A stretch of DNA of 64,000 nt from a bacterium (GCA_963674595.2 CAXXFV010000015.1:256001-320000), one strand, 5' to 3'. Counted from the first letter of the stretch, positions 1 to 37,775 are shown. The notes: a model not told the origin generated them from the sequence alone. Translations and numbers: made by a program.

Positions 1-2
1 AC

Positions 3-269
3 CAGTCCATTCAGCCGACAGCCGATATGGATATTTGTTATCTTAAAGGATATTTTGGTGATAAAATTACCCTTTGGGGTGGTGTATCTGTTGAAAAAAT
101 GGTAGGCGGGACCATGGACGAGGTTCGGCAAGATGTTCAACGCGCTATGCAATGTGCAAAACCAGGCGGTCGTTTTATTCTTGGAACCAGTCACTCTATT
201 GCGGTTGGAAGCCAATATGATAATTATATGGCCATGCTGGATGAATATCACAAATTATGTGACTATTAA
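3..269 (+). CDS. UroD/MtaA-CmuA (COG0407) family protein, C-terminal fragment truncated at window start
   Basis: Frame is open from nt 3 (QSIQPTADM...). Family C-terminal motifs LWGGVS...GT..EV and PGGRFILGTSHSI. Confidence 0.8.
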   Translation, partial: QSIQPTADMDICYLKGYFGDKITLWGGVSVEKMVGGTMDEVRQDVQRAMQCAKPGGRFILGTSHSIAVGSQYDNYMAMLDEYHKLCDY

Positions 270-281
270 CCGGAGTTTTCT

Positions 282-1241
282 ATGGACTTTGCCCCGTCAG
301 TTTATGAACATGCTGCTAAAATAATTGACAAAACACCCTGGGAGGTATCCAGAGATGCCGAATTGCTGTTTCAGTCACATAGAGAAGCTTATTTGAAATA
401 TCAACACAAGCCCATTACTGTCGGTATTGATATCTATAATTTGGAAGCTGAAGCCTATGGCGCTGTTGTAGAAAAACCGGATGATACGGGTGTTCCTTCT
501 ATACAAAATCATATTTGCAGCTCTGTGTCTGATATTTTGGCATTACCAGATTTAGATATCGTTACTTCTCGTATAAGCATGATTATTGAGGTTGGCGAAC
601 GATTAAAAAAAGAGTTTCCCCGGGCAGATGTTAGAATACCGGTTAGCGGACCTGTGTCTATAACCGGTACCCTGGTTGGTATGGAAAATCTTTTGATTGA
701 ATCTGCTTTTAATCCAGAAAGTATAAAAGAAGCTTTTGAATTTTTATGTAAGGGGCAGTTAAATTTTTGTAAAGCTGTTACAGATGCTGGACTTGACGTT
801 ACCTTTTTTGAATCTGCTGCTGCTCCGCCTTTATTTTCTCCGGCTCAATTTAAGGATATGATTGCCCCGGTTTTAACTCAATTAATGCAGAACATTTTTA
901 AAATTACTCAAAAACCTGTTGCCTTGATTATTGGTGGGAATACGGAACCAATTTTAGAATCCATTATTGCTACCGGGTCAAAATATGTTATTTGTCCTTC
1001 TGAAACTGACCAAAAAGCTTTTATGGAAAAAATTTGGGACTGTTCTGATATTATGGTACGTATTAATATGGACCCTAAAATAGTTGCCTTTGGAACCTGG
1101 GACGAAATTAAACAGGAAATAGATCGTGTTTTACAAATTGTAAAAGGACGAGATATGGTTTGTTTGGGTTCCGGTGTTCTGCCCTATGAAACACCTGTTG
1201 ATAATGTTTTAAAAATTATTGAATATATGTCTACCTTGTAA
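282..1241 (+). CDS. UroD/MtaA-CmuA family TIM-barrel protein (methylcobamide methyltransferase-like)
   Basis: DIYNLEAEAYGA, SGPVSI, FESAAAPPLFSPAQF and LPYETPVDNV resemble MtaA/CmuA. The canonical HxC zinc motif is absent (LIIGGN). Confidence 0.75.
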   Translation: MDFAPSVYEHAAKIIDKTPWEVSRDAELLFQSHREAYLKYQHKPITVGIDIYNLEAEAYGAVVEKPDDTGVPSIQNHICSSVSDILALPDLDIVTSRISMIIEVGERLKKEFPRADVRIPVSGPVSITGTLVGMENLLIESAFNPESIKEAFEFLCKGQLNFCKAVTDAGLDVTFFESAAAPPLFSPAQFKDMIAPVLTQLMQNIFKITQKPVALIIGGNTEPILESIIATGSKYVICPSETDQKAFMEKIWDCSDIMVRINMDPKIVAFGTWDEIKQEIDRVLQIVKGRDMVCLGSGVLPYETPVDNVLKIIEYMSTL

Positions 1242-1260
1242 CCTAAAAAAGGAGGTTATT

Positions 1261-2472
1261 TTGAATAAAGTATCCATAGCTGTTGTAGCACTCGGAGGAT
1301 ATGGGTTGGTTTACCTTGAAGGTCTTTTAGACAAACCACAGGATGATAATTATGAAATCGTTGGTGGTGTTGACCCGGAACCCGAACGTTGCACGCGGCT
1401 GCAAGACCTGAAAAATTTAAACATACCTATCTATTCTTCACTTGAAGAATTTTACGAAAATCATTCTGCCGACCTTGTTATATTATCTTCACCGATCCAT
1501 TTGCACGTTCCGCAAACGGTTTTGGCTTTGTCAAAGGGAAGTAATGTTTTATGTGAAAAACCGTTGGGAGCAACTATTCAGGAAGCCAGAGAAATGATTA
1601 ATGCTGAAAAGGCCTCCCCCCATTTTGCAGCAATCGGTTATCAATGGTCTTTTACTGATGCTATTCAAAGTTTGAAAAAAGATATTTTGGATGGCGTTTT
1701 AGGGAAACCTAAACTTTTAAAAACTATTGCGCTTTGGCCCAGAAATGAATCCTATTATAATCGTAACAATTGGGCAGGTGGTAAAAGAGATAGTCGTGGA
1801 AACTGGATACTTGACAGTCCGGCTAATAATGCCGTGGCTCATTATCTTCACAATATGTTTTATGTTCTTGGGCCTGACCGGGAATCCAGTGCTGTTCCGG
1901 TTTCGGTAGAAGCAGAATTATATCGCGCCAATAAAATTGACAATTTTGATACTGTTGCTTCCCGAATCATTACAGATAATGGCGTTAAAGTTCTTTTTTA
2001 CGGCGCTCATCCTGTTGATAAACCAAAAGAATATGGACCCTTTGTATCCTATGAATTTGAAAACGCAACTGTTACTTTTGACGGACTTTTTTCCGACTTT
2101 AAAGCTGTTTTTAAAGATGGTTCTGTTAAAAATTATGGAAAGCCGGATGAACAGCAAATCAAAAAAATGTGGGATTGTATTAGCGCTGTTCGTACAGGAG
2201 AACCTGTTGCCTGTGCTTCTCAGGCTGCCAGCTCACAAACGTTGTGTATAAACGGTATGCAGGATTCGACACCGGAAATTATTACTTTTCCCGAGGAACT
2301 CGTTAAAGTTAAAGGCGAACCGGGTACAAGACTGACCTATGTTGAAGGACTTGTTGAAGATTTTATTAATTGTTATGAGAAAAATATTTTACCGAATGAA
2401 GCCGGTATTTCATGGAGTAAAAAGCCGGCCAAGATTGATCTGACTAATTATCAAAAATTCCCAAGTGTATAA
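1261..2472 (+). CDS. Gfo/Idh/MocA family NAD(P)-dependent oxidoreductase
   Basis: Rossmann motif ALGGYG, VLCEKP motif. Start reassigned to TTG at 1261 because GGAGG lies at 1251-1255. Confidence 0.9.
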   Translation: MNKVSIAVVALGGYGLVYLEGLLDKPQDDNYEIVGGVDPEPERCTRLQDLKNLNIPIYSSLEEFYENHSADLVILSSPIHLHVPQTVLALSKGSNVLCEKPLGATIQEAREMINAEKASPHFAAIGYQWSFTDAIQSLKKDILDGVLGKPKLLKTIALWPRNESYYNRNNWAGGKRDSRGNWILDSPANNAVAHYLHNMFYVLGPDRESSAVPVSVEAELYRANKIDNFDTVASRIITDNGVKVLFYGAHPVDKPKEYGPFVSYEFENATVTFDGLFSDFKAVFKDGSVKNYGKPDEQQIKKMWDCISAVRTGEPVACASQAASSQTLCINGMQDSTPEIITFPEELVKVKGEPGTRLTYVEGLVEDFINCYEKNILPNEAGISWSKKPAKIDLTNYQKFPSV

Positions 2473-2477
2473 AAAAG

Positions 2478-2510
2478 AAAAGGCCTGAAATTTTATTTCA
2501 GGCCTTTTTT
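2478..2510. terminator. Bidirectional intrinsic terminator
   Basis: AAAAGGCCTGAAAT-ttt-ATTTCAGGCCTTTT with A and T tails, between convergent genes. Confidence 0.85.
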
Positions 2511-2529
2511 GTATGTATCAATTAGATTG

Positions 2530-4635
2530 TTACTTTATTGAAGTCATAAAAATTAAGAGTGCAATAATAACACCTACCAAAATCCAGCTTCCACCAAAAC
2601 CGTAAATGTCTTGTTTTGAGGGTTTGAGTATTTCCCAATTTGAGCCGGGCCATATTTTGTCCTTTTCAAATTTATCGGGATTATCATAAGAGTCTTGTAA
2701 TGCTTTTTCTTCTTCTTCCTCTGTCGGCAGTACAGGTGTGTGCAGCTTGCCAAAGAACCTGTCCATCCTTTCTTTTTTCACCGGTTTGGTTAAATAAGAA
2801 AGTATAAAAAGAAGGAGGAACGGGAATAACGCATCAAAGAAAAATCGTGTTGACACAAGTTGGGCTTTTGTGAATTTTGTAAAATCAATACCCAGCCATG
2901 ACAAGACCCATATTTCTGCATGAAAACGTCCAATTCCTATTTTGGCTGAATTGGGATCTTCCGGGTTGATACGTGCAACTGTCTCAAAAAAGACACCAGT
3001 CGGTTCAATGGTATGTTGTCTTTCAATCGGTTGACCAACTTTTTGGGCAAGTCCGGCGTCAACATCTTCCTGAAGCGCGCCGATGGTGATCATAACCTGT
3101 TTTGGGCTTGTTTCCAGTAAATAATAATCGCTATATTTTACAGAATCCATATACTGAAAAATATTTGGGATGATAGCATAAATTGTCAGACAAATAAACA
3201 TCTGGATGATAACAGCCCATTTGGTGACCCTTCTCCAAATAAAACCCAGCCAGATGGAGGCACCAAAAATAGCCGGTATAGAAATAAAGTATTTAAAAAG
3301 ATCCAGCAAGTTGCCGACAAAAACTGCCGCCCAGATACCGCCCAATAGGACAACACCAATAATAACTCTACCGACGTTAATGTAATGTTTTTCGCTTTTG
3401 TTGGGTAACAGCGGTTCATAAATATTTTTTATAAAAAGCGCTGAATTTGAAACTGATGTTGCATCCAGGGTTGACATATTGGCTGCTAAAATACCGGCCA
3501 GCATTAATCCGATGGCTCCCGGAACCAGCAGGTCTCTGGTCATAAATCCCCAGATAAGATCCGGGTCATGAATTTGACCGGCATAAAGACCGATGGCTAA
3601 TAATCCTGCCAATGCCCAGAACATCATTAAAAATCTTTTAAAGAACATACCGCCTATCATACCAAAACGTGCCGTATTCTCATTTGTGGCAGAACCGGCT
3701 GTTGCCATCATGGGTGCACTGGCAATGATGGACACAAGGTTAGCGACAATCATGGCAAGGATCGTGTACCAGGCATATTCACTCATGGTTACTGACCCAA
3801 ACAGCTCAAACATATAGTCCGGAACAGAGGCGTGCAGCCCGCTAAATCCTCCTATTTTCATAAGTCCAAGTGGGATCAGTAAAAAGGAAAAGATGATCAT
3901 CAAAATTCCCTGGATCGCATCTGTTATTGCCGCCGCTGTAAATCCTCCAAGCATGGTGTAAATAGCAACAATAATAGCATAAATAAAATAAAAACCGATT
4001 TCATTTGTATGAGAAACAAATGAACGAAGTTCGCCTTTTTTATTTTTTTCGTTGAGGACCTGGTATCGGGCTTCTTGTTCAGGAGACAAGCCAAGTTTTA
4101 ATTCGCTTTTTAAAGTCTGATACTCTTTAAACTCTTCAATACTAACGCGTTCTTCAACAGTACATTGTTCCAATGTTTTAGGTGTTAAGGCCATCATTGT
4201 TTTAGCAGCAACCATATAACCAACGCCGCCTCCGATAAAAGCCATTAAAAGTGTAAATACTGCAAAACTTCCACCTAAAAATTTGCTGTCAAAACGTTCT
4301 GTAAAATAATCACCGATAGTAGTTAACCGAACACGTCTAAAAAACAAAGTTGTAAACCAGTAGAACGGCGTGAGAAATAGGACAAGATATTGTATCCACA
4401 TACCGCCAATTCCTTGTCGGTAAATTTCCCGGGACACAGCAACTGCCTGGTCTGCATTCGTTGAACAGCCAAAGTTTAGAAAAAACTGGTAAAATTTACC
4501 CAGTTTTCTTCCGGCGAGATAAAAGTCTCCGGTGTCTTTAGTTTTCTGACCTGCTCTATGTCCCACCCAAAGAATAAATACAACGTAAATAAGGATGACT
4601 GAGAGGTCAAGGATGTGAAGTCCAAAAATGTGCAT
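2530..4635 (-). CDS. Sodium:solute symporter (SSS) family transporter
   Basis: DFYLAGRKLG, YTMLGG..AAAITDAIQG and AGILAANMSTLD motifs; many TM helices. ATG at 4635 follows GAAAGGGA. Confidence 0.92.
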   Translation of the reverse strand: MHIFGLHILDLSVILIYVVFILWVGHRAGQKTKDTGDFYLAGRKLGKFYQFFLNFGCSTNADQAVAVSREIYRQGIGGMWIQYLVLFLTPFYWFTTLFFRRVRLTTIGDYFTERFDSKFLGGSFAVFTLLMAFIGGGVGYMVAAKTMMALTPKTLEQCTVEERVSIEEFKEYQTLKSELKLGLSPEQEARYQVLNEKNKKGELRSFVSHTNEIGFYFIYAIIVAIYTMLGGFTAAAITDAIQGILMIIFSFLLIPLGLMKIGGFSGLHASVPDYMFELFGSVTMSEYAWYTILAMIVANLVSIIASAPMMATAGSATNENTARFGMIGGMFFKRFLMMFWALAGLLAIGLYAGQIHDPDLIWGFMTRDLLVPGAIGLMLAGILAANMSTLDATSVSNSALFIKNIYEPLLPNKSEKHYINVGRVIIGVVLLGGIWAAVFVGNLLDLFKYFISIPAIFGASIWLGFIWRRVTKWAVIIQMFICLTIYAIIPNIFQYMDSVKYSDYYLLETSPKQVMITIGALQEDVDAGLAQKVGQPIERQHTIEPTGVFFETVARINPEDPNSAKIGIGRFHAEIWVLSWLGIDFTKFTKAQLVSTRFFFDALFPFLLLFILSYLTKPVKKERMDRFFGKLHTPVLPTEEEEEKALQDSYDNPDKFEKDKIWPGSNWEILKPSKQDIYGFGGSWILVGVIIALLIFMTSIK

Positions 4636-4855
4636 AAAGGTTTCCCTTTCGTTAGTTCGCAAATTGATTGGAAATGGATATTAAGGTTTTATAATAAAAT
4701 ATGATTTTTACGCCGTTAGTAATTGGAAATATTGTATTCCAAAATCTTGTTTTTGATAAGCCTTACAAGGTATAAATTTTCGAAATTAAAAACAAATTTT
4801 TTTTAAAAAGTTGACAAAGTACGCGTTTAAGCTACCGGTTACGTAATTTGATTGT

Positions 4856-4884
4856 TTGACATCTTGTCAGGAAATACTTATCTT
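4856..4884 (+). promoter_or_regulatory. Sigma-70-type promoter overlapped by palindrome TGACAtctTGTCA
   Basis: TTGACA (4856) - 17 bp - TATCTT (4879). Inverted repeat at 4857-4869 covers the -35 box. Confidence 0.55.
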
Positions 4885-4935
4885 TTACAGTTTTGGTTTA
4901 CTTTAGTTTTAGTACATAATGAAAGGACTTTTATA

Positions 4936-6519
4936 ATGCCGTGTCCAGAGATTTCCATCAAGACCGGAAAAAAAGAGTTTGATGATTTTATACCTCAAAT
5001 AAAAAAGTTTTTGGAAAAAGACTATCTAGATGTGGTTATTGATTCTCAAAAAATCAGGGGCTATCGTTCACCCGATGCCAAATCCATTTGGATTCGGGAC
5101 CACAGCGATATTATGAGAGGATTTAAATATTTTGAACAGGATATGAAATCAACTGTTCAGCATTTTGCTGATACTCAGGCAGCAAATGGCCGTATTTTCG
5201 ATTATTTTACTGTTTTCCCTGAAAAATTACCTTCTGAACGTGAAAATTGGACAAAGTATGTCCGCGTGCCTGTAGAAGCCGACGTTGAATATCGTTTTGT
5301 CAATGCTGCTTATTTAGCCTGGCAGGCAACAGGTGATGATACCTGGGTTAAGAAACTTTTACCGAGTTTGGAAAGAGCTTTAAATTACACGCTTACACAT
5401 CCTTGGCGATGGGATGAGAAGACACAGCTCGTTAAACGTCCTTATACCATTGACACATGGGATTTTGCCTACACAGCCGGTTCGCATGACTGGCTGCAGT
5501 TTCAGATTGATGATAACACTTTTTGGGGGATTATGCATGGTGATAATAGCGGCTTTTATCAGGCATTTTTGCGTCTTTCAAAGCTCTATGATCATTTTGA
5601 TGAAAAAGGTAAAGCCGGTTACTGGGCAGAAAAAGCCCAGCTTCTTAAAGATCAGGCACAGAAAGTGTGCTGGAATGGTTCCTTTTTTACCCATTTTGTA
5701 AAATTAACACCGGTAACAATTGATGGTGTTGACGAAGCTTCCCAGTTGAGTATGAGTAATCCGATGGATATTAACCGGGGAATGGCTACTCACGAAATGG
5801 CTGTTTCCATTATTAAAGAGTATCAAAAACGAAAAGAAACATCCGGCTCCTTTGCCGAATGGTTTTCCATACATCCTGCTTTCCCTGATAATATTTTCGG
5901 AGATGAATTATTAGTGCCGGGTGCTTATATAAACGGCGGTATATATCCTCTGGTCGGCGGTGAATTGGCAAAAGCAGCCCTGGACCATGGTTTTGAAGAG
6001 TATGGAATAGATATATTAAAACAATATTATAAACTTGTTTCTGAAACCGGTGAAACATTTTTATGGTATTTCCCGGATGGCTCTGCGTCATCCATTGAAA
6101 CCAGCACCAGCCCGGATGCCACGCCAACGGATGGTTGGGGTTCAAGTGCTATGCTTTATGCTCTTGTTGAAGGTTTGGCCGGTATAGAAGACACCTTTAA
6201 ACTTTATCAAAAAGCCAAAATTTCACCTCGCTGGACCGCTGCCGGTGTTTCCGAAGCTCAGGTAGATGTAAGTTATGCGTCCTCTGAAACCGGTATCGGC
6301 TATACATATTTATTAAAAAATGATTCACTGGAATTAATTGTTACGGCATTAAACAGTGATTTGGATTTTCATGTTCTTTTACCAAAAAATAAATCCTGCA
6401 AAAATGTTACGGCCGGAAAGAAAAACGTCTCTTTCTCTGTTTCAACTTGTGAAAACAGCAATTATGTTGATTTTACTTCAACTGTGCAGGAACAAAAACA
6501 AATTGTTATTCATTTTTAA
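4936..6519 (+). CDS. Putative (alpha/alpha)6-barrel glycoside hydrolase/phosphorylase-like protein
   Basis: IWIRD, AWQATGDD.W, YINGGIYP and LVEGLAGI segments are typical of six-hairpin glycosidases. ATG at 4936 follows GAAAGGA. Confidence 0.65.
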   Translation: MPCPEISIKTGKKEFDDFIPQIKKFLEKDYLDVVIDSQKIRGYRSPDAKSIWIRDHSDIMRGFKYFEQDMKSTVQHFADTQAANGRIFDYFTVFPEKLPSERENWTKYVRVPVEADVEYRFVNAAYLAWQATGDDTWVKKLLPSLERALNYTLTHPWRWDEKTQLVKRPYTIDTWDFAYTAGSHDWLQFQIDDNTFWGIMHGDNSGFYQAFLRLSKLYDHFDEKGKAGYWAEKAQLLKDQAQKVCWNGSFFTHFVKLTPVTIDGVDEASQLSMSNPMDINRGMATHEMAVSIIKEYQKRKETSGSFAEWFSIHPAFPDNIFGDELLVPGAYINGGIYPLVGGELAKAALDHGFEEYGIDILKQYYKLVSETGETFLWYFPDGSASSIETSTSPDATPTDGWGSSAMLYALVEGLAGIEDTFKLYQKAKISPRWTAAGVSEAQVDVSYASSETGIGYTYLLKNDSLELIVTALNSDLDFHVLLPKNKSCKNVTAGKKNVSFSVSTCENSNYVDFTSTVQEQKQIVIHF

Positions 6520-6533
6520 AAAAGGATTCTATA

Positions 6534-7829
6534 ATGAAACGTAGATATTTTTTTAAAACATTAGGCTTTTTATCAGGCGGGCTTGCGTTAACAAAAGTAA
6601 ATAAGTCCAGGGCCGCGTTGCCTCTTGAAGAATCTCTTTCAACAGTATCTCCTTTGAGTAAAAAATATTGGGAATTTGTGCGTGATCAGTTTTTACTACC
6701 AAAAGATTATGCTTATTTAAACACCGGCGGCATCGGTGCTTCGCCAATTTCCGTTTTGGATTTTACCCACCAGGTTACGGAAAAGCTGGAACTTAAACCT
6801 CGCCCTGGTCATGGATATGAGGAATGGTTTACAATTAAAGAAAAGTGTGCTGATTTGTTGGGTGGTAATATTGATTTTAAAAATGAAATACATTTTACTG
6901 CATGTACTACTGAAGGGAATAATATTATTATTAACGGTTTACCGTTAAATAAAGGTGATGAAATTATAACAACCACTCATGAACATTCCGGTTTAATCGT
7001 TCCGTTATTAAATAAAGTGCACCGTTTTGGTGTAAAAATTAAAACATTTCATCCTGATATGAAAAATGGACTGGGAAATGTCGACCGAATTGAGAAATTG
7101 ATTAATAAGAAAACAAAGCTTATATTTGTCAGTCATATTACGTGCACGACAGGACAACGTTTACCGGCAAAGGAAATAAGCGAGTTAGGTCGGTCCAGAA
7201 ATGTATGGGTTGCTTTTGACGGCGCCCAGGTTGCCGGTAATTTACCGCTTGATCTCAAAGATATTGATTGTGATTTTTATGCGACCGGTGGTCATAAATG
7301 GGTATTGGGACCCAAACGTACCGGATTTTCTTATGTAAGGAAAGAGTTGCTCGATGTTATGCTACCGACAACTGTCGGCGCTTATTCAGATGGCGGTCAC
7401 GATATCGAAACAGGAGAATTTAAATATAATCCTTCTGCGGAACGCTATGAATGGGCTACACAAAACGAAGCTCTTTATCAGGGAATGGGAAGAGCAATTG
7501 ATTTTTTAAACACAATCGGCATGGAGAATGTTTGGCAGCATAACAAAAATTTGGCCGAAATGTTTTATCAGGGTTTGTCAAAAATTAAAAATGTTGAAAT
7601 TTTATCACATGAACAGGAAGAATACAGAACGCCACTGATCACTTTTAGAGTAAAAGACAAGAATTTTAAAGAGATTGGTTCCTCTTTGGTTGAAAAAGAT
7701 TTACGTGTTCGGGTTGTTACGGAAGCGAACCTGAATGGTATTCGAGTATCATGTCATATTTATAATAGTGAAGAAGAAATTGAAAGACTATTGTCAGAAA
7801 TTAATAAAATTGCAACGAATAAAATTTAA
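6534..7829 (+). CDS. Class V PLP-dependent enzyme (CefD/PvdN-like) with twin-arginine signal
   Basis: N-terminal MKRRYFFK plus hydrophobic stretch. YLNTGGIG, DGAQ and GHKWVLGP (PLP lysine). No SufS/IscS catalytic-Cys loop seen. Confidence 0.85.
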   Translation: MKRRYFFKTLGFLSGGLALTKVNKSRAALPLEESLSTVSPLSKKYWEFVRDQFLLPKDYAYLNTGGIGASPISVLDFTHQVTEKLELKPRPGHGYEEWFTIKEKCADLLGGNIDFKNEIHFTACTTEGNNIIINGLPLNKGDEIITTTHEHSGLIVPLLNKVHRFGVKIKTFHPDMKNGLGNVDRIEKLINKKTKLIFVSHITCTTGQRLPAKEISELGRSRNVWVAFDGAQVAGNLPLDLKDIDCDFYATGGHKWVLGPKRTGFSYVRKELLDVMLPTTVGAYSDGGHDIETGEFKYNPSAERYEWATQNEALYQGMGRAIDFLNTIGMENVWQHNKNLAEMFYQGLSKIKNVEILSHEQEEYRTPLITFRVKDKNFKEIGSSLVEKDLRVRVVTEANLNGIRVSCHIYNSEEEIERLLSEINKIATNKI

Positions 7830-7874
7830 AATTTTCATGTTTTTAAAATTATCTCATAGGAGGATAATATTTTC

Positions 7875-10208
7875 ATGAACATCAAGCAAGCTTTAGACCA
7901 GGTCAAAACAATTCAGTTTTCGGCCTCAGCATTACCTGTTGTAAAAACCTGTGCACGGGAAATTCAAAAAAAATACCCGTCAATTTCTCTGGTTGAAACG
8001 GAATCTAGTATTGTTTCTTCCGGAAATAATACATTAACTATATCAGTTGAAGATGAGTTGTCGTTTAGCGATTTTGATTTGAATAAAGTATCTGAAGAAA
8101 ATTACATCTATTTTCAATTAAATAATGAGGGTTCCGGAAAAATTGTTGCCTCGAAAAAGTATTATCTTTTTGCTTTTGTCAGCCTTTTATTGGAAGACTG
8201 GGCAGAAAAGGATGTTGACGCTTATAAAAACGGTAAAGTTATTCCGCCGGCGTTTACATGGCAACGAGTTAGTTATGATTATTTTATTGCACAGGAAGGC
8301 CGAATTCAAAGAAAACTTGACCGCGAACTTTATATTCGCGAATTAGCGCGAATGGGTTTTACACATATCGAAGTAAATGGTATGGCAACACCTATGGGCT
8401 TTGAACCCGGCCCCAAAGGTGAAATTTTAAACATGTTTTTTACTTATTGTGCGGCGCTCGACCAGTTTGTTTACAGCAAACTCAACAAAGGTTTATACCC
8501 CACTTATATTTTGTCTGCAAATATGAGAAACCTGAAACACAATACTGATTTAGCGACAAAATATGGTCTGGTTCCCGGATTCACAAGTTTTGAACCCCGA
8601 TGTGTTCCTGAAGAGTTTTTTAACCGATACCCCATGCTGCGGGGTGCCAGGGTAGACCATCCGTTCCGCAGTTTAAAACCGCGATACAATATGACCACAA
8701 CGCATCCCAAGGTTTTGGAACACTATGCGGAAATGGTTTCCAAACTGGTTCAGGAAATCCCGGAACTGGGATTTATAACCGTATGGTCTAATGACAGTGG
8801 CGCTGGTTTTGAACATACAAAGTCGTTGTATGTCGGACGTAACGGCGGCGCTTATATGATCCGGGAATGGAAAAGTGATGAAGAAATTGGCCGATTGGCC
8901 GGTGAAAATGTTATCCGTTTTCTGAGAAATTTGCAGGTTGCCGGTTCTAAAGTCAATCCGGATTTTAAAGTGTTAACACGTATGGAATCCTTTTATGGCG
9001 AACACGATACGGTTTGGAATGGTTTCGGAGACGGGTTGGAAGTGGAAACCGCTTCGCTGGTAGCAAAAGGATGGGCCATGCCTTACAAACATCCTAAATA
9101 TGAAGACAATGACTCTATTAACGCCGGTACAATTTATCAACTGGATTTTGATGAAAGAGAAAAGCAACACATCAAAGACCTGCAAAATCGAAATGCAAAC
9201 GCGCATTATTATTTAACCGTTGGACCGCATATTTGTTTTAATCCGCTGTTGGGCGTTCCATACCCGTCATTGACTTTTAAGCGCATCAGTCTTTTAAAGG
9301 AAAATGGTGTGAGCCATTTGGCCCATCAGGGCGGAACCCAACCACCAAATCTGGTCCCTTTTAATATTAATCATGAAATTACAAAACTCTACCAATACAA
9401 TCCGGATATGGATATTGATACGGAAATTAATCGTATAGCAGTAAAGTGGGCCGGTGAGAAATATGCAAAAGATTTGATTAAAGCCTGGAGAGAAACCGAA
9501 GAAGCATTACTTTCGTTCCCCAATTTGATTGGTCTTTATGTATGCTATGGATTTGCCTGGTATAGAATGTGGGTAAGACCGTTTGTTCCCAATATGGAAG
9601 CTGTTTCCGATGAAGACAGGGCTTTTTATGAAGATTTTATCTGTACCGTACCTCATAATCCGAATAATGTTGATATAAGCCGCGATGTATTGTTTCAACT
9701 GACAACGGCTGAAAAATCTAAAGTTGTTTTGCAGCGTATTGATACAAATCTGTGGACGCCGATGCAAAAGGCAATTGACATACTGGAAGCAGTTGTTGAT
9801 AATGCCACAAAAGACCTTGGTGAAAACAATGTTATTTATGATCAGTTAATTCGTTTAAAAGCTCTCAAATGCTGGATGATGACACAGCGCAATATTGCTA
9901 CATGGATCACCGGTGTTCATGGCTATATGCAGGCAAAAACTGATTCTGAGAAAAAAGAAAATCGTGAATTGGTTAAAGAAATGATTGAAAAAGAAATCGC
10001 CAATACTAAAGAATTGAAAGAATTATGGACCTCTTCCGGTATTGAATTTATGTCTGTTACGGACAAGGGCGAAAATCAATTGGTTTATGGTGACAATATG
10101 GGCGATCTGTTTGATAAACGTATTGCCGTTATGAAAAAACATATTAATGATGAACCCTTTATCGATCCGAATTATATGGAACGCAAAGCCGGTGAATTAT
10201 TAGGATAA
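7875..10208 (+). CDS. Hypothetical 777-aa protein, possibly a glycoside-hydrolase-like barrel
   Basis: Long ORF with strong AGGAGG RBS. ELYIRELARMGFTHIEV and WSNDSG resemble GH20/67/115-like architectures only weakly. Confidence 0.55.
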   Translation: MNIKQALDQVKTIQFSASALPVVKTCAREIQKKYPSISLVETESSIVSSGNNTLTISVEDELSFSDFDLNKVSEENYIYFQLNNEGSGKIVASKKYYLFAFVSLLLEDWAEKDVDAYKNGKVIPPAFTWQRVSYDYFIAQEGRIQRKLDRELYIRELARMGFTHIEVNGMATPMGFEPGPKGEILNMFFTYCAALDQFVYSKLNKGLYPTYILSANMRNLKHNTDLATKYGLVPGFTSFEPRCVPEEFFNRYPMLRGARVDHPFRSLKPRYNMTTTHPKVLEHYAEMVSKLVQEIPELGFITVWSNDSGAGFEHTKSLYVGRNGGAYMIREWKSDEEIGRLAGENVIRFLRNLQVAGSKVNPDFKVLTRMESFYGEHDTVWNGFGDGLEVETASLVAKGWAMPYKHPKYEDNDSINAGTIYQLDFDEREKQHIKDLQNRNANAHYYLTVGPHICFNPLLGVPYPSLTFKRISLLKENGVSHLAHQGGTQPPNLVPFNINHEITKLYQYNPDMDIDTEINRIAVKWAGEKYAKDLIKAWRETEEALLSFPNLIGLYVCYGFAWYRMWVRPFVPNMEAVSDEDRAFYEDFICTVPHNPNNVDISRDVLFQLTTAEKSKVVLQRIDTNLWTPMQKAIDILEAVVDNATKDLGENNVIYDQLIRLKALKCWMMTQRNIATWITGVHGYMQAKTDSEKKENRELVKEMIEKEIANTKELKELWTSSGIEFMSVTDKGENQLVYGDNMGDLFDKRIAVMKKHINDEPFIDPNYMERKAGELLG

Positions 10209-10216
10209 TTAAATAT

Positions 10217-10245
10217 GCCTGATCTGTTTAAATGGCAGATCAGGC
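10217..10245. other. Intra-operon stem-loop without U-tail
   Basis: GCCTGATCTG...CAGATCAGGC. Confidence 0.45.
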
Positions 10246-10270
10246 TTGAATTATTAACATTGAGGTTTGT

Positions 10271-11077
10271 ATGTTCGAAATAGGTATTGTTTCTGATGAG
10301 ATAGCACTTGATATCCATGAAGCTGTCAGGATCGGCAAGGAACTCGGATTCAAAAAATATGAAATTCGTTGTGTGGGCAGCTATGAAAAACGGATTCCAT
10401 TTATTGACGATGACGATTTAAATTTCATTCGTAATCAGGTAAAATCCGGTGAAATGGAATTAACCGCTTTTTCTCCGGGCAGTTTTAAAATAAAACCTTC
10501 GGACACAAAGCAACTGGACCACCATCTCAATTCTATTTTACCAAAAACATTTGAGCTGGCTGCTGAGCTTGGTGTGGAAAAGATTATTAGTTTCAGCTTT
10601 ATTCGGGATGAAACGGATGAAGATAAGGTCGTTGAAATTTTACGTCAGGCCGGTGAACTGGCCGCCAAGTATGGACTTGTTTTTGCCGTTGAAAATGAAC
10701 CCGGATTTTATTGTGATACGTCTGAAAATACGGCAAGGATCCTTGAAAAGATTAATTTGAAAAATGTTGGCGCAAACTGGGACCCAGGTAACGCCAACAG
10801 TGCCGGTGAAATTGCCTATCCAAACGGCTATGAAACCCTCAAACCATATATTGTAAATCTACACATTAAAGATACGCTTTACGGACCAAAGTTGAAAAAC
10901 GAACTGATTTTTGACGGCGGTATTAATTGGGTGGGCCAATTAAATGCTGTTTATAAAGATAAAATTTTACCCTATGTGACTTTGGAAACCCATCTTGTTC
11001 CTTTGGAAGAGATGACCCGTGAGGACTTGAGGCGAATTTATATGATAATTGACATTATAAAAAAAATTAATTCGTAA
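10271..11077 (+). CDS. Sugar phosphate isomerase/epimerase (AP endonuclease 2 / xylose isomerase-like TIM barrel)
   Basis: GIVSDEI, VENE, WDPGN, HIKD and TLETH metal-binding motifs. Confidence 0.88.
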   Translation: MFEIGIVSDEIALDIHEAVRIGKELGFKKYEIRCVGSYEKRIPFIDDDDLNFIRNQVKSGEMELTAFSPGSFKIKPSDTKQLDHHLNSILPKTFELAAELGVEKIISFSFIRDETDEDKVVEILRQAGELAAKYGLVFAVENEPGFYCDTSENTARILEKINLKNVGANWDPGNANSAGEIAYPNGYETLKPYIVNLHIKDTLYGPKLKNELIFDGGINWVGQLNAVYKDKILPYVTLETHLVPLEEMTREDLRRIYMIIDIIKKINS

Positions 11078-11090
11078 CAGTGGAGTACAA

Positions 11091-12248
11091 ATGACTTCAA
11101 AAGAGCGTTTATTAGCAGCCATTAATAATGAAAAACCGGACCGTCTGCCTGTTACAACACATCATTTAATGGATCATTTTCTCAATACGTATATGGGTGG
11201 AATCCAATACCCCGAGTTTTTTGACCATTTTGGGTTAGACGCCATTACATGGACGGTTCCGACAAAGGCGGACGAGGCACAGGGATTTTATGCGGATCCG
11301 ACTGATAGTCGTACTGATTTTTTGTCAAGTAAACGGATTATATCCGACAACTGGCGTATCGAATCCGAAGAAATTGAGGACCCGCAATATAAAACGGTTC
11401 GATATAACATTATCACCCCAAAGGGTGTATTGACGACTGTTTTACAATCAAATGAATACACAACCTGGGTTCAGGAACATTTGATAAAAGAGAAAAACGA
11501 TATTGACCTCATTGAAGAGTTTGTTACCTATCCGCTGTGCGATGTAGAATCGGTAAACAAATCGGCACAGGAATTTGGTGAAAGGGGAATCATTCGCGGA
11601 CATATTTGCTGTTTTGAAATTTTTGGTCAGCCTGGCTGCTGGCAGGATGCCTCCTGTTTGATTGGAATTGAAAAACTGATTATGGCCGTTTATGATGATC
11701 CGGATTGGGTGCACAGCCTTTTAAAAATCCTTCAGAACAGAAAATTAAAATATATCGAATCGCTCAAAGGCGCCAGGTATGATATTCTGGAACTGGGCGG
11801 AGGTGATGCTTCTTCTACAGTCATCTCTCCAAAAATATTTGACGAATACGTTGCTCCTTATGATTCCGTATTGATTGAAGCAGCCCATAAAGCCGGACAA
11901 AAAATTGTTTACCACACCTGCGGCGGAATGATGCCGATTTTGGAAAATATTGTTTCCATGAATCCCGATGCAATGGAAACTTTTACACCCCCGGGAATGG
12001 GAGGTGATACCCGACTTGCAGAGGCAAAAGAACGGATTGGTGACAAGGTCGGTATGATCGGTGGTTTTGACCAGTTTCACTTTTTTAAAGATTGCACGCC
12101 CGAAGAAACCCGAAAGGCCGTTCGCACCTGTTTTGAACAAGCCGGTACAAATGGCGGTTATATCCTGTGTCCTTCTGATCACTTTTTTGACGCAGATCTG
12201 GAACTGATTGAGGCCTTTGCGGATGAAGCGCGGAAATGTGTTTATTAA
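11091..12248 (+). CDS. UroD/MtaA family protein
   Basis: MTSKER...PDRLP start, ISPKIFDEYVAPY, YHTCGG (HxC), MIGGFDQ, GGYILCPSDH. Confidence 0.88.
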   Translation: MTSKERLLAAINNEKPDRLPVTTHHLMDHFLNTYMGGIQYPEFFDHFGLDAITWTVPTKADEAQGFYADPTDSRTDFLSSKRIISDNWRIESEEIEDPQYKTVRYNIITPKGVLTTVLQSNEYTTWVQEHLIKEKNDIDLIEEFVTYPLCDVESVNKSAQEFGERGIIRGHICCFEIFGQPGCWQDASCLIGIEKLIMAVYDDPDWVHSLLKILQNRKLKYIESLKGARYDILELGGGDASSTVISPKIFDEYVAPYDSVLIEAAHKAGQKIVYHTCGGMMPILENIVSMNPDAMETFTPPGMGGDTRLAEAKERIGDKVGMIGGFDQFHFFKDCTPEETRKAVRTCFEQAGTNGGYILCPSDHFFDADLELIEAFADEARKCVY

Positions 12249-12280
12249 AATAAGTTTGACCTTTAAAGATTAGAAACCGG

Positions 12281-12320
12281 TTCCGGGAATTTGAAAATTT
12301 TAATTCCCGGAATTTCATTT
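12281..12320 (+). terminator. Stem-loop followed by T-rich tail (possible partial terminator)
   Basis: TTCCGGGAATT...AATTCCCGGAA followed by TTTCATTT. Confidence 0.4.
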
Positions 12321-12337
12321 TACAAGAGAAACCTAAA

Positions 12338-13363
12338 ATGACAAACGTTGAACGATTTAAAAAGCTGATGAATTTTGAGCCTGTTGATCGTCTGCCGATG
12401 GTGGAATGGGCCATGTGGTGGGACCAAACACTTGATCGCTGGTATAAGGAAGGTCTGCCTTTGGATTTAAAGGAAGAACATGAAATTCGTTCTTATTTCG
12501 GACTTGATTCCTACCGGCAGCTTTGGATTAATCCGATTATGCCGAATGCACCCAAGCCTGCTTTTCACGGAGCAAGTCTGGTAAAAAATCGGGAAGAATA
12601 TCTGGAGTTTAAAAAGTATCTGTATCCCAAACCTGCTTTTGATCAGAAATTAATTGAAACATGGGCAAAAGAGCATGAAGCTGGTGAAACGGTCATCTGG
12701 ATTACGCTGGAAGGTTTCTTTTGGGTACCCAGAGATTTGTTCGGCATTGAAGGGCATATTTACGCCTTTTATGATCATCCTGAATTAATGCATGAAATGA
12801 ACCAGGATGCTTTGGAATTTAATTTGAGAGCGCTTGAAGAATTTTGCAAAATTGTCAAGCCGGATTTTATGACCTTTGCCGAAGACATGTCCTACAATCA
12901 TGGCCCAATGCTTTCCAAAGAAAGTTTTGATGAATTTTTGGCACCCTATTATAAACAGCTTATACCGGAATTGAAAAAAAATGGTGTTGTACCGTTTATC
13001 GATTCCGATGGTGATATTTCAAAACTTATTCCCTGGCTGCTTGAAGTGGGTATGGAAGGAATTTTACCCCTGGAGCGTATGGCCGGTGTTGATGTCAACC
13101 AGTTGCGTAAAGACCACCCGACTTATAAATTTATCGGCGCTTTTGACAAGACTGTTATGCACCTTGGAGAAGAAGCAGTTCGAAACGAATTTGAACGAAT
13201 TTTCCCGGTTATGAAACAGGGAGGATTCATTCCCTCTGTCGATCACCAAACGCCTCCGGGTGTTTCTTTGGAACAGTACAGGCAGTATCTTGTTATACTA
13301 GAAGAATATTGTGAAAAAGCGGCTAAAGAGTTTACCGGAATTCTACATGACAATTCGAGATAA
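12338..13363 (+). CDS. UroD/MtaA family protein
   Basis: MTNVERF...PVDRLP, FAEDMSYNHGPMLS, IDSDGD in place of HxC, FIGAFDK, GGFIPSVDHQTPP. Confidence 0.88.
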   Translation: MTNVERFKKLMNFEPVDRLPMVEWAMWWDQTLDRWYKEGLPLDLKEEHEIRSYFGLDSYRQLWINPIMPNAPKPAFHGASLVKNREEYLEFKKYLYPKPAFDQKLIETWAKEHEAGETVIWITLEGFFWVPRDLFGIEGHIYAFYDHPELMHEMNQDALEFNLRALEEFCKIVKPDFMTFAEDMSYNHGPMLSKESFDEFLAPYYKQLIPELKKNGVVPFIDSDGDISKLIPWLLEVGMEGILPLERMAGVDVNQLRKDHPTYKFIGAFDKTVMHLGEEAVRNEFERIFPVMKQGGFIPSVDHQTPPGVSLEQYRQYLVILEEYCEKAAKEFTGILHDNSR

Positions 13364-14519
13364 AAATATTGATCTGGGCTGGTTTGAGCGCCATATTTTA
13401 ACGGATATTTTACCGGTTTGGCTGCATCATTCACCAACATCGAATGGTTTTTTTTTATCGCATTTCGATGAACATTTTAAATTAATGAATGACAATACCG
13501 GGACGCTTGTTTCGCAAAGCCGGATGATTTATAATTTTTGTATGGGCTATAATTTAACAGGGGACCCCTCTTATTATATGGGTGCTGTTAAAGGGGCTGA
13601 TTTCCTGATAAATAATTTTTATGATAAAAAGTACGGCGGATATTTTTTTTCCTGTGATTCAGATGGAAATGTTATTGATGAACTGAAATTCAGTTATGGT
13701 CAGGTTTTTGTTATTTTTGGACTGGCCCATATTTGTCGATTAACAGGTGAACAGAAATATAAACAGGCTGCAATACAAGCGCTGGATGAGTTGGATAAAT
13801 TTTTTGGTGATGAATTCGGCGGGCTGTATTGGTATATGTCACGGGATTTTAAACCTACTTGTGATTTTAAATCACAAAATTCTCTGATGCATCTTTATGA
13901 AGCCTTATTGGTTCTGGCAGAATTGGACGGCATGTCTTATATACTGGAAAAAGCGCAAACCGTGGCTGAATTTGTATTAAAACTTTCAAGACCGTCATCA
14001 GGTCTGCTGCCGGAGCTGTTTGATGTTGAATGGAAAGAAAAATTCGACGCACCGAATTCACGAATTGATATTGGTCACGCTTTTGAATGGGCCTATCTTT
14101 TATCAGCAGGAGTGGAACGCGGTTTACCGGACCGGTTTTTAACCCATGCTGAAAACTTTTTGGAATACGGAATTGAACTGGGATATGATTCGGAGCAGGG
14201 AGGTATTTATTCGCCAGCCGAACCAAAAACATTAAATGTTGTACAAACTAAAAACTGGTGGGAGCAAACTGAAGCTATTCGGGCCATGTTGAATTTTTAT
14301 TTTTCAAGAGAGCACAAAGAATTGTTTGAACCATTGTCCCGGACTATTGATTTTGTAAAAAACCAAATGATTGATCCGAGAAATGGGGGATGGTTTAGTA
14401 AAATTGATGATAAAAATGATCAGCATCTTCAACTAAAAGGTTTCCCGGGAAAAAATTATTATCACATTATGGGTATGGCTATGGAAGCCATTAGAATTAA
14501 AAAGATTGTTTCAAACTGA
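13347..14519 (+). CDS. AGE family (N-acylglucosamine/cellobiose 2-epimerase) epimerase/isomerase
   Basis: QSRMIY, YGQVF, QNSLMHLYEA, IGHAFEWAYL, WWEQTEA and YH motifs. Confidence 0.9.
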   Translation: MTIRDKNIDLGWFERHILTDILPVWLHHSPTSNGFFLSHFDEHFKLMNDNTGTLVSQSRMIYNFCMGYNLTGDPSYYMGAVKGADFLINNFYDKKYGGYFFSCDSDGNVIDELKFSYGQVFVIFGLAHICRLTGEQKYKQAAIQALDELDKFFGDEFGGLYWYMSRDFKPTCDFKSQNSLMHLYEALLVLAELDGMSYILEKAQTVAEFVLKLSRPSSGLLPELFDVEWKEKFDAPNSRIDIGHAFEWAYLLSAGVERGLPDRFLTHAENFLEYGIELGYDSEQGGIYSPAEPKTLNVVQTKNWWEQTEAIRAMLNFYFSREHKELFEPLSRTIDFVKNQMIDPRNGGWFSKIDDKNDQHLQLKGFPGKNYYHIMGMAMEAIRIKKIVSN

Positions 14520-14569
14520 CTTGGAATAAATCAAATAAATTATTGTTTACTTGACAAAAAGGAGTAAGC

Positions 14570-15595
14570 ATGATACCTTTACAACATATACCTAAAAAAC
14601 CTGAAATACTGACGACAACCGTTGGTTCCTATCCTGTCCCTGATTGGCTGACAGCTTTTCCGAGTGAGCAGGCCGTTATGGATGCCACCCGGGTCATATT
14701 TGATATTCAGCGCCAGGCCGGCATTGATGTTATAACAGACGGAGAGTTATCCCGATTTGATACGAACCATCCGGATACAAATGGCATGATTGATTATTTC
14801 ATTCGTCCGCTAAAAGGTGTTCGTACTGAGGTTGGCCGGAAAGACTGGCTGGATTTTCAAAAAACAAAAACAATGTCGTTTCGTGCAAAACCGGCCGGTG
14901 TTGTTGAAAAGGCATTGGGAGAAGGCGGACTTAATTTAGTACATGATGCAGCCAGGGCTGTTGATGTTGCCGCTGCGCCGTTTAAATTTACCGTCACAAG
15001 TCCTTATATGCTGGCCCGTACATTACTGGATCGATATTATAATGATTTTGAAATTTTAACAATTGAACTTGCCAGAATAATGGCCATGCAGGTTGAAAAT
15101 TTACCGGTTGCCTGTGTGCAAATAGACGAAGCAAATATTCCGGGTAATCCTAAAGACTGGATATTGGCATCAAAATCTATAAACATTATTTTGGATAAAA
15201 TTTCCGTTGAAAAATCAGTCCATTTGTGTTTTGGAAACTATGGCGGCCAGATTATTCAGGAAGGAACATGGAAAACGTTGATTGATTTTATTAACTCTTT
15301 ATATGTCGATCACGTTATTCTGGAATTAGCACACCGACCGGAAGAGGATTTGGATGCCCTTGTGGATATTCGTAAGGAAATTGCTCTTGGGATTGGCGTT
15401 GTGGATATTAAAGTCAACCATGTTGAAACACCGGACGAAATTGCCTTTAGCATTGATAAAGCTGCTAAAAAATTAGGACCGGACCGGATTCGTTGGATAC
15501 ATCCTGATTGCGGTTTCTGGATGTTAAAGCGCAGTATAGCGGACCGAAAGATGGAAGCATTGGTCCGGGGACGAGATAAATATTTATCAGTATAA
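14570..15595 (+). CDS. Core (single-barrel) cobalamin-independent methionine synthase family protein
   Basis: TTTVGSYPVP, ITDGE, QIDEA, HLCFGN, LE, GVVD and HPDCG zinc motifs. At 341 aa it lacks the N-terminal folate-binding barrel. Confidence 0.88.
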   Translation: MIPLQHIPKKPEILTTTVGSYPVPDWLTAFPSEQAVMDATRVIFDIQRQAGIDVITDGELSRFDTNHPDTNGMIDYFIRPLKGVRTEVGRKDWLDFQKTKTMSFRAKPAGVVEKALGEGGLNLVHDAARAVDVAAAPFKFTVTSPYMLARTLLDRYYNDFEILTIELARIMAMQVENLPVACVQIDEANIPGNPKDWILASKSINIILDKISVEKSVHLCFGNYGGQIIQEGTWKTLIDFINSLYVDHVILELAHRPEEDLDALVDIRKEIALGIGVVDIKVNHVETPDEIAFSIDKAAKKLGPDRIRWIHPDCGFWMLKRSIADRKMEALVRGRDKYLSV

Positions 15596-21541: not shown

Positions 21542-22102
21542 TTATATAAACTGCTTGACAAGGTCAAATTTTTTTTCGTTTGCCAGTTCCAAATGTAAAA
21601 TTCCTCCATAGTCCACACGAATTTTAAAGATCTTAGCAAGAGGAATTTCCAACAGATAGGCCCAGCAGCAACGAATGACCCCGGCATGGGTAATCACCAA
21701 GACTTTATTATAATTTTTTTGTCGCAACATTTCGAAAAATAAAGTTACTCTGTTATATAAACTTATCAAGTTTTCACCGTTTGGTGGTGAAATATGTATA
21801 AAGTTGTTTCCCCATGTATCCAAATCAGATCGATTGATTTTATCCCATTTTTGCATCTCCCAATCGCCAAAATGCATTTCCACAAGATCATCTGATGTAA
21901 TAATATTTTTTGAAAATTGCAGGGCAAGCTGTTTGCATCTTTTTAGCGGGCTCGAGTATACAGCATCAAAATTTTCAGGCAGTTTTGCTTTAATAAGGTG
22001 AAATTCCTTTTTAAAAGTATCTGCTAAATCCAAATCCGATTGTCCATAGCAAATATCTTTTGCAACGTTCACCTGTGTATGCCGAACTAAATAAACTTCC
22101 AT
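21542..22102 (-). CDS. cobC: Alpha-ribazole phosphatase (histidine phosphatase family)
   Basis: LVRHT, YSSPL.RC, E.HFGDWE and THAGVIR motifs; adjacent to cobS. Confidence 0.88.
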   Translation of the reverse strand: MEVYLVRHTQVNVAKDICYGQSDLDLADTFKKEFHLIKAKLPENFDAVYSSPLKRCKQLALQFSKNIITSDDLVEMHFGDWEMQKWDKINRSDLDTWGNNFIHISPPNGENLISLYNRVTLFFEMLRQKNYNKVLVITHAGVIRCCWAYLLEIPLAKIFKIRVDYGGILHLELANEKKFDLVKQFI

Positions 22103-31625: not shown

Positions 31626-31771
31626 ATTATTCTTCCTTTGTGATTCGTGATGGGGGGATGGGGACGTGGATCAATATTTTAAATAAAAGCATATATTAAA
31701 ATAAGGGTTGTTTTTATATTGTTCAAGCTTTTTTGGGAAAAAAGACAGGTATTATAAAATGGAATTGTGAT

Positions 31772-31823
31772 AAAAAAAATGCGATGCAGACATTTTTAAA
31801 AACAGACATGAACCGCATCGCAT
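31772..31823 (-). terminator. Possible terminator after the DUF1080 gene
   Basis: ATGCGATGC...GCATCGCAT 9-bp stem with a long loop and an adjacent A-run. Confidence 0.35.
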
Positions 31824-31836
31824 AAAATAAAAAATG

Positions 31837-33300: not shown

Positions 33301-33320
33301 TATATTTTCCTTTATATAAA

Positions 33321-34115: not shown

Positions 34116-34126
34116 TTCTATCTCCT

Positions 34127-36470: not shown

Positions 36471-36485
36471 TTTTCTGCCTTTATT

Positions 36486-37541: not shown

Positions 37542-37563
37542 AAGTAACCTTTCTTTGTATAAA

Positions 37564-37605: not shown

Positions 37606-37633
37606 ACAAATAGAAATTGTATTTGAAAAATAT

Positions 37634-37715: not shown

Positions 37716-37775
37716 AGAATATAAAAAAGAAATGAATACAGGTCAACTGTTATTTCACGTCTTTTGAAAAAGACG

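Follow-up and report, generated by a model that had tools for sequence, protein, structure and literature searches.

We analysed a window of 64,000 nucleotides (contig C15, positions 256001-320000) from a bacterial genome of 6.62 Mb in 37 contigs, with a GC content of ~38%, whose homologues carry names suggestive of KSB1 and neighbouring FCB-group lineages. The left end of this window carries a cluster of sugar genes in which proteins of the URO-D family (PF01208), named after uroporphyrinogen decarboxylase (HemE) and related to the methyltransferase MtaA, are encoded next to a transporter, an oxidoreductase, isomerase- and epimerase-type enzymes and glycosidase-like proteins. These URO-D paralogues, and the corrinoid-dependent methyl transfer that they may carry out, are the subject of this study. 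A first-pass annotation had proposed that the cluster imports and cleaves O-methylated glycosides, removes their methyl ethers by a corrinoid-linked route and passes the methyl groups to homocysteine or another thiol, with a MetE-like protein encoded at its end.

Pfam profiles confirmed the four URO-D genes and the assignable neighbours of that annotation, placing URO-D at positions 282-1241, 11091-12248 and 12338-13363 of the window, with the fourth gene entering from upstream. This gene, UroD0 (C15:255133 to window position 268, + strand), encodes a 378-aa URO-D fold and lies directly 3' of a gene for an alpha-mannosidase of glycoside hydrolase (GH) family 38. It is followed on the + strand by UroD1 (282-1241, 319 aa), which among PDB sequences matches MtaA best (4AY7, E 3e-11), and by a Gfo/Idh/MocA oxidoreductase (1219-2472, Pfam) with weak similarity to glycoside 3-dehydrogenase-type models. 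The sole reverse-oriented gene of the cluster encodes a 710-aa sodium:solute symporter of the SSS family (2530-4662, - strand). All remaining genes are on the + strand. Two open reading frames previously described as GH-like have no Pfam match and nonetheless look like glycosidases, one by its features and the other by its predicted fold. The first (4852-6519, 555 aa, probable start at 4936), which had no match in Pfam or in a PDB sequence search, falls by language-model features among MGH1/GH63/trehalase-like clusters and would be a six-hairpin glycosidase-like protein. The second (7875-10208) encodes a conserved cytoplasmic protein of 777 aa with no Pfam family and no PDB sequence match, and its model (pLDDT 80) comes nearest to GH138, GH20, GH67 and GH115 glycosidases, at TM scores of only 0.4-0.5. 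Between the two lies a gene that had been overlooked, encoding a class-V pyridoxal phosphate enzyme (6534-7829; SufS/PvdN-like, under the family cut-offs) with an RR-type, that is twin-arginine-type, signal peptide, a leader that stands out inside an otherwise cytoplasmic sugar operon. The cluster continues with a xylose-isomerase-like TIM barrel (10271-11077, AP_endonuc_2 in Pfam), UroD2 (11091-12248, 385 aa), UroD3 (12338-13363, 341 aa), a protein of the AGE family (13311-14519; GlcNAc 2-epimerase, mannose isomerase or cellobiose 2-epimerase type) and, as last gene, a single-barrel MetE-like protein (14570-15595; Meth_synt_2, PF01717). Intergenic gaps between co-directional genes range from -53 to +99 bp.

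The operon runs past the left edge of the window, as had been supposed. The 20 kb upstream encode, in order, a TonB-dependent-type outer-membrane protein, an 849-aa protein of unknown function and a PorV-like protein, and then, on one strand and with gaps of 7-99 bp, a zinc alcohol dehydrogenase, a TIM barrel, a 769-aa protein of unknown function and the GH38 alpha-mannosidase, followed by UroD0. The fifth paralogue, the cobTSC and cobU genes and the corrinoid importer reported for the same window are also present. UroD5 (24879-25877, - strand) lies just upstream of a DUF3795 gene and of cobT-cobS-cobC on the same strand (21542-23876), which encode cobamide nucleotide-loop assembly including a cobC-like phosphatase. 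Genes for corrinoid import and salvage (BtuF-like protein, ABC ATPase, FecCD permease and cobU; 47917-51165, - strand) are preceded by a cobalamin riboswitch (51193-51402, - strand). The whole genome contains 41 PF01208 matches; the 26.7 kb considered here hold five where ~0.17 would be expected, therefore their clustering is not due to chance.

With the PF01208 profile (cut-off 23.9 bits), UroD1, UroD2, UroD3 and UroD5 score 104.5, 83.4, 43.6 and 80.3 bits, and UroD0 55.8 in the genome search; true HemE proteins in related genomes reach ~455-480 bits, and the best of the 41 paralogues here, a UroD-thioredoxin fusion, 206. The HemE model TIGR01464 (cut-off 302.95 bits) gives 38.2, 21.2, 23.8 and 19.6 bits for UroD1, UroD2, UroD3 and UroD5, and the MtaA/CmuA model TIGR01463 (cut-off 235.4 bits) gives 69.7, 57.3 and 63.6 for UroD1, UroD2 and UroD5, with no match for UroD3. 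The paralogues score better with MtaA models than with HemE, yet far under all NCBIfam cut-offs. We also built a tree by a quick maximum-likelihood search with IQ-TREE over 51 rows (the 41 paralogues and references). Four HemE references formed a clade of their own (SH-aLRT 99) that included none of the 41 paralogues, and one long-branch paralogue (C16:137562) was left unresolved beside it. Scores and clade together rule out true HemE, in agreement with the earlier view that the paralogues are something else. In this quick tree UroD1 sits on a long branch and groups with MtaA-like and UroD-thioredoxin proteins, and UroD0, UroD2, UroD3 and UroD5 fall into a large second group that also includes a UroD protein encoded, in another genome (locus L031), between MtaB and a corrinoid protein.

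The metal site tells these proteins apart further. In the alignment of the 41 paralogues most keep H-x-C-G, with His or Asp in place of the Cys that forms the third zinc ligand of MtaA; the full His-Cys-Cys set (H-x-C ... C) is retained in only two of them, both encoded on contig C14. At the MtaA ligand positions UroD0 and UroD5 have H, C and H (H-x-C ... H), UroD2 has H and C followed by D-H, UroD3 has D and D followed by D-H (D-x-D ... D-H), and UroD1 has I, G and S. Among 35 UroD2 orthologues H275, C277, D363 and H364 were invariant in all 35. As described in the accessible part of one study, His-Cys-Cys belongs to the S-methyltransferases of the superfamily and O-demethylases replace one or both Cys (PMC10418091); a UroD-fold methyltransferase I (MT I) without zinc is described in the accessible part of another (PMC13222342). 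Judged by sequence, the window paralogues include neither a true HemE nor a canonical MtaA.

The UroD-thioredoxin fusion is itself worth describing. It is a 540-aa URO-D plus Thioredoxin_3 protein encoded beside a CobW GTPase, both in this genome (C16:687321-688943, - strand) and in a related locus (L041:2057-3676). Frames of ~540-590 aa occur at many of the best URO-D matches of the phylum sample, a likeness of length only in which the thioredoxin domain is putative, and several of them lie <10 kb from a second URO-D match and from a second type of corrinoid protein. Its role may be that of the methyltransferase on the thiol side in a cluster of mlp type.

A corrinoid protein and its activators, which the proposed chemistry would need somewhere in the genome, are both encoded, and the first-pass annotation is not refuted on this point. 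There is exactly one stand-alone corrinoid protein (CorrP; C6:179078-179710), with B12-binding_2 and B12-binding domains, and all 14 homologues aligned with it share its DxHxxG, SxL and GG motifs. Two RACo activators were found, one on C14 beside a cluster for carbon monoxide dehydrogenase/acetyl-CoA synthase (CODH/ACS) and one orphan on C8, together with a single DUF1638 gene, 17.5 kb upstream of the window on the opposite strand. The genome also encodes MetH besides the CODH/ACS cluster. URO-D genes, CorrP, RACo, DUF1638 and CODH/ACS are all scattered across the genome, in which tblastn with proteins of loci L031 and L035 as queries gave no match for MtaB or for a stand-alone MetH-activation domain. 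Within the C14 CODH/ACS cluster, near the RACo gene and a DUF3786 gene, a 1166-aa frame (L004:13772-17272, - strand) fuses ACS/CODH beta-subunit domains with a CdhD-like domain. The orphan CorrP gene keeps its own synteny (C6:177978-181451 and loci L118-L129), its neighbours encoding a HAD hydrolase, a PRPP synthase and a GHMP kinase that is 68-79% identical in relatives.

Homologues of UroD2 number >4000 at E <1e-10. We fetched 80 UroD2 loci whose proteins are 56-71% identical to UroD2, from Chloroflexota, Bacteroidota, Planctomycetota, Verrucomicrobiota, Ignavibacteriota, Spirochaetales, Clostridia, Acidobacteriota and KSB1, and took neighbourhood counts over these 80. At the level of sequence UroD2 is unusually conserved across phyla. 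A corrinoid protein 49-67% identical to CorrP was encoded in 7 of the 80 loci, in five of them apparently in one operon, and gene orders were read manually from the coordinates. In L035 and L032 the order is CorrP, a MetH-activation-like domain, a PfkB kinase, a lyxose-isomerase-like cupin and UroD2. L077 has GH38, UroD2, CorrP and TauE, and L067 the same genes with GH38 absent; in L053 CorrP is followed by UroD2. L031 carries MtaB, UroD, CorrP, DUF1638, RACo and an MtaA-like gene, divergent from an aldolase, UroD2 and a further UroD. L041 carries GH38, Gfo, UroD-thioredoxin, CobW, UroD, a UroD3 orthologue (58% identical), a corrinoid protein that starts 59 bp after it, a beta-helix protein and UroD2. 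As to conservation of the neighbourhood, which had been suggested as a test, orthologues of UroD2 and UroD3 do adjoin corrinoid proteins elsewhere, and L041 is the only one of the 80 loci syntenic with the window. Conserved synteny of the whole locus around UroD2 was rejected, as none of 20 other locus proteins, weak UroD cross-hits aside, appeared in more than 8 of the 80 loci.

We also looked for CorrP at the scale of genomes, in the 49 UroD2-bearing genomes that correspond to 50 of the 80 loci, those on longer contigs. A stand-alone CorrP homologue was present in 47 of the 49. As background, 150 other sampled Bacteroidia contained no UroD2 and one stand-alone CorrP, the remaining matches being frames of MetH length. 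Among UroD2-bearing metagenome-assembled genomes labelled Bacteroidota, five of six have a stand-alone CorrP against this one in 150 (Fisher 5e-8, with relatives that are not independent); eight more Bacteroidota-labelled UroD2 loci, on short contigs, lay outside the search. Those five genomes have 9-31 URO-D matches each, and four of them have RACo, in three cases within ~3 kb of CorrP. Within the organism's own phylum, genomes whose CorrP orthologue is closer tend to have more URO-D candidates (Spearman 0.71 over 120 genomes and 0.62 over 23 families). The phylum tallies include one genome flagged as unpublished (G088), on which no conclusion rests.

The UroD2 model (pLDDT 92.8) is a (beta/alpha)8 barrel of the MtaA/UroD type with a beta-rich insertion at about residues 51-129. 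A sequence search with UroD2 gave no PDB match; Foldseek with the model returned the MtaA structures 4AY8 and 4AY7 at the top (E 1e-13), followed by UroD structures. The modelled complex of UroD2 with the CorrP encoded on C6 had, against 0.07 for the best of three controls, an ipSAE of 0.81 in three runs, a mark reached by 116 of 157 solved complexes and by 2 of 215 mismatched pairs. The partners had pLDDT values of at least 86, and at least 89% of contacts were common to the runs. In the modelled interface the B12 face of CorrP, with its DxHxxG loop and cap helix, is set against the mouth of the UroD2 barrel. As a prediction, the model supports binding of UroD2 to the CorrP of its own genome.

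The genes around UroD2 orthologues suggest a sugar substrate. GH38 was found in 20 of the 80 loci, a sugar transporter of the major facilitator superfamily (MFS) in 13 and a lyxose-isomerase-like cupin in 6, beside ABC sugar systems, kinases, LacI regulators, GH3, sulfatases and more UroD paralogues. Genes for glycosidases or sugar transport also adjoin the paralogue at ~17 of 29 other such loci in this genome. Another UroD paralogue, on contig C27 (L106:7172-10422, - strand), is flanked by a sugar ABC system on one side and by a glycyl-radical enzyme and its activase on the other. Gene context makes O-methylated sugars, freed by the neighbouring glycosidases, the most likely substrates; for UroD2 a mannose-type sugar is likely because of GH38, the AGE and cupin isomerases and the PfkB kinase.

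The reading that we find best, and to which we give about an even chance, is that the locus is a cytoplasmic glycan or oligosaccharide cluster whose URO-D paralogues are corrinoid-dependent MT I methyltransferases, most likely acting on O-methyl sugars. The MT I assignment most likely holds for at least UroD2 and UroD3, and probably for UroD0 and UroD5. Family, fold, residue patterns, genome inventory, neighbourhoods, co-occurrence and the docking model were computed, and what we infer is the transfer of the methyl group, its acceptor and a sugar as the substrate. Each UroD enzyme would bind one methylated substrate, whose ether oxygen would be activated at a Lewis-acid metal site, formed in UroD2 by His-x-Cys plus Asp/His, and Co(I) of a separate corrinoid protein would accept the methyl group. 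The remaining parts would be dispersed, with CorrP on C6, RACo on C8 and DUF1638 upstream of the window, and the C14 His-Cys-Cys paralogues of MtaA type and the C16 UroD-thioredoxin fusion with CobW would be candidate second methyltransferases. In this way a single carrier and a single activator, with a small number of MtaA-type enzymes, could serve many substrate-specific enzymes in different sugar loci, and the demethylated sugar would go on to isomerase or epimerase and kinase steps. The earlier idea of a corrinoid-linked system is partly supported: the co-occurrence, the adjacency in other genomes and the complex model speak for it, whereas a corrinoid protein just off the left edge and the MetE-like gene as methyl sink find no support.

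A number of observations weigh against this reading. The corrinoid protein that had been expected just off the left edge is absent: neither the locus nor the 20 kb upstream encodes one, and the lone DUF1638 is the only corrinoid-related gene there. None of 124 proteins flanking 33 other paralogues, two genes on each side, has a B12 domain, and 73 of the 80 UroD2 loci have no corrinoid protein within 10 kb. The phylum sample offers 24 loci, that of this genome among them, where the CorrP orthologue goes with a GHMP kinase, a HAD protein and PRPP synthase and not with UroD, none of which was seen within 1.5 kb on each side. Co-occurrence says little inside the own phylum, where 118 of 121 genomes have stand-alone corrinoid proteins. 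UroD1 has none of the three metal ligands, ~12 of the 29 paralogue loci are without carbohydrate context, and the complex model may owe its score to a resemblance to other corrinoid-protein complexes. Of the 24 sequencing runs returned, none was listed as RNA. As for the chemistry, alkyl methyl ethers are inferior to aryl ethers as donors of methyl groups, and a single carrier for ~40 enzymes would be unusual. Corrinoid-dependent sugar demethylation was found nowhere in the literature searched, with subscription journals outside its coverage.

Part of this would be explained if the URO-D folds of sugar loci were not methyltransferases at all, and instead decarboxylated, hydrolysed or isomerised a sugar acid or ester, the nearby corrinoid proteins belonging to other systems. 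The lack of an adjoining corrinoid protein at most UroD2 loci and at all 41 paralogue loci here would be natural in that case; moreover, the scores lie far under the MtaA/CmuA cut-offs, the fold is common to a cofactor-free decarboxylase, and the third zinc ligand is unlike that of all characterised thiol methyltransferases. On the contrary, it leaves unexplained the operon-level linkage of CorrP and UroD2 in five loci of different phyla, twice with a MetH-type reactivation domain, the co-occurrence in 47 of 49 genomes over the background of 1 in 150, the joint presence of RACo and a URO-D expansion in Bacteroidota genomes, the UroD2-CorrP model that passes its controls, and the position of UroD5 beside cobTSC. 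We consider this explanation unlikely.

Methyl transfer could also act on another kind of ether. The paralogues could be corrinoid O-demethylases, comparable to OdmB and VdmB, acting on the methoxylated aromatic aglycones of plant phenolic glycosides, with the glycosidases and the Gfo and TIM-barrel proteins removing the sugar. A Gfo/Idh/MocA protein paired with a xylose-isomerase-like TIM barrel is known from oxidative glycoside cleavage. Both proteins are encoded in the locus, and the whole corrinoid evidence fits aromatic substrates equally well. The recurrent partners of UroD2, on the other hand, work on free sugars (PfkB, the lyxose/mannose-isomerase-like cupin, fucose isomerase, MFS, GH38), the annotated loci showed no genes for the catabolism of aromatic rings, and the paralogues are numerous and mutually very distant, which matches glycan diversity. 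Aromatic substrates are in our opinion quite improbable, even considering that the characterised ether-cleaving MT I enzymes of the superfamily, in the accessible parts of two articles, are all aryl methyl ether enzymes (PMC10418091, PMC13222342).

The MetE-like gene deserves separate consideration, as it was to be the methyl sink. The protein scores 65.5 bits with PF01717 (cut-off 21) and is the sole match of the genome; its His-Cys-Glu-Cys zinc ligands are intact and align with 3RPD. Among NCBIfam methionine-synthase equivalogs its best model is PRK04326, at 158.7 bits against a cut-off of 406. Orthologues occur in only 26 of 120 sampled phylum genomes. In 15 related MetE-like loci no UroD or locus homologue was found within 1.5 kb, a result that counts against the proposed system as well, and the 10 of these loci that were checked with Pfam had varied neighbours. 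On these grounds the gene was rejected as a conserved part of the system, and to call its product the methyl sink would be a guess. The full scheme of the first-pass annotation, in which methyl-corrinoid passes its methyl group to homocysteine through this barrel, can draw on the zinc site, on the position of the gene 50 bp 3' of the AGE gene on the same strand and on core MetE enzymes reported to use methylcobalamin, but it is very unlikely given the sparse orthologues, the 15 unlinked loci, the absence of a MetE-like gene from all 7 CorrP-containing UroD2 loci and the presence of MetH in the genome.

Returning to sugar demethylation by dispersed MT I enzymes, the genome would suggest a wider picture, which we put forward tentatively: a hub-and-spoke network in which one carrier and activator serve at least ~35 UroD-fold methyltransferases, each in its own glycan locus, the methyl groups entering the Wood-Ljungdahl pathway. 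The kit would have spread by gene transfer, because UroD2 is 56-71% identical from Chloroflexota to Bacteroidota.

The rest of the region offered some further observations. A B12-binding radical SAM protein with DUF4070 is encoded at window positions 28506-29984 (+ strand), and six or so more B12-binding frames of the length of radical SAM proteins occur genome-wide. A second SSS transporter and a protein of the 3-keto-disaccharide hydrolase family follow at 30045-32478 (- strand); this hydrolase family appears again near other UroD paralogues (loci L088 and L089). At 32596-37716 (- strand) lies a thiamine operon behind a TPP (thiamine pyrophosphate) riboswitch (37625-37716), with two AIR-synthase-related genes (one likely ThiL), TenA, ThiE, ThiD and a methyltransferase. 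Two proteins of 743 aa (37776-40007, - strand) and 220 aa (44163-44825, - strand) had no Pfam family at E 1e-5. Upstream of the window, a type III glutamine synthetase is split into two overlapping frames of 601 and 176 aa (C15:238793-241059, + strand), for which a frameshift or an assembly error is possible.

Among known systems, the three-component O-demethylases (MT I such as OdmB, VdmB or CdmB, corrinoid protein, MT II and RACo/RamA) are alike in that the enzyme on the methyl-donor side is a barrel of the URO-D superfamily and the corrinoid protein, of MtbC/MtgC type, has DxHxxG; RACo, the Wood-Ljungdahl pathway and an altered or absent zinc triad are also common to both. The known ones are compact operons acting on aryl methyl ethers, halomethanes, methanol, amines or thiols, whereas here 41 URO-D genes are scattered through glycan loci, the carrier is encoded elsewhere, the context points to sugars and the proteins form separate, very divergent subfamilies. 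MtaA, MtbA and MtsA (4AY7/4AY8; TIGR01463) are the nearest structural and sequence relatives of UroD1 and UroD2, and H-x-C is kept in most paralogues; the differences are the replaced third Cys, the ~80-residue beta-rich insertion in UroD2, the lack of a coenzyme M context and scores of 57-70 bits against 235. HemE has the Pfam family and the TIM-barrel fold in common, while scores and clade differ. The mlp clusters of Kountz and Balskus (PMC10418091), with MtaA-like proteins and a corrinoid protein and a proposed role in methyl-sulfur/selenium metabolism, resemble the C14 His-Cys-Cys paralogues and the UroD-thioredoxin gene beside CobW, accompanied in relatives by a second corrinoid protein type. 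However, mlp-like proteins are here a minority 'group A', UroD0, UroD2, UroD3 and UroD5 are in the separate large group with altered metal ligands, and the term sugar occurs 0 times in the accessible text of PMC10418091. This window contributes the extreme case of 41 paralogues with a fully dispersed kit, the cross-phylum co-occurrence set against a background, and the controlled docking result as far as a model can give it.

These comparisons bear on a wider question of glycan degradation. Methylated sugars are found in algal, plant, fungal and bacterial glycans (among them 6-O-methyl-galactose, 3-O-methyl-mannose, 4-O-methyl-glucuronate, 2-O-methyl-fucose and 2-O-methyl-xylose), and their ordinary catabolism is blocked by the methyl ether. 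The only sugar demethylases in the literature searched were O2-dependent P450s, and no anaerobic enzyme was found; in the accessible part of their description, these P450s of marine aerobes act on 6-O-methyl-galactose and have the same proposed task, the removal of a methyl ether that blocks sugar catabolism (PMC6292453). They use O2-dependent haem chemistry and an unrelated fold, and the system described here would be an anaerobic, B12-based counterpart. If true, it would close a gap in the anoxic carbon cycle and link the degradation of glycans to the supply of cobamides. It would also account for thousands of genes that wrongly carry the label 'uroporphyrinogen decarboxylase', and would widen the ether cleavage of corrinoid systems from aryl ethers to the alkyl ethers of sugars. 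UroD2, highly conserved, confidently modelled and with a defined candidate partner, is a good entry point for biochemistry. If the hub-and-spoke arrangement also holds, it would mean that anaerobic polysaccharide degraders of several phyla strip methyl ethers from natural sugars.

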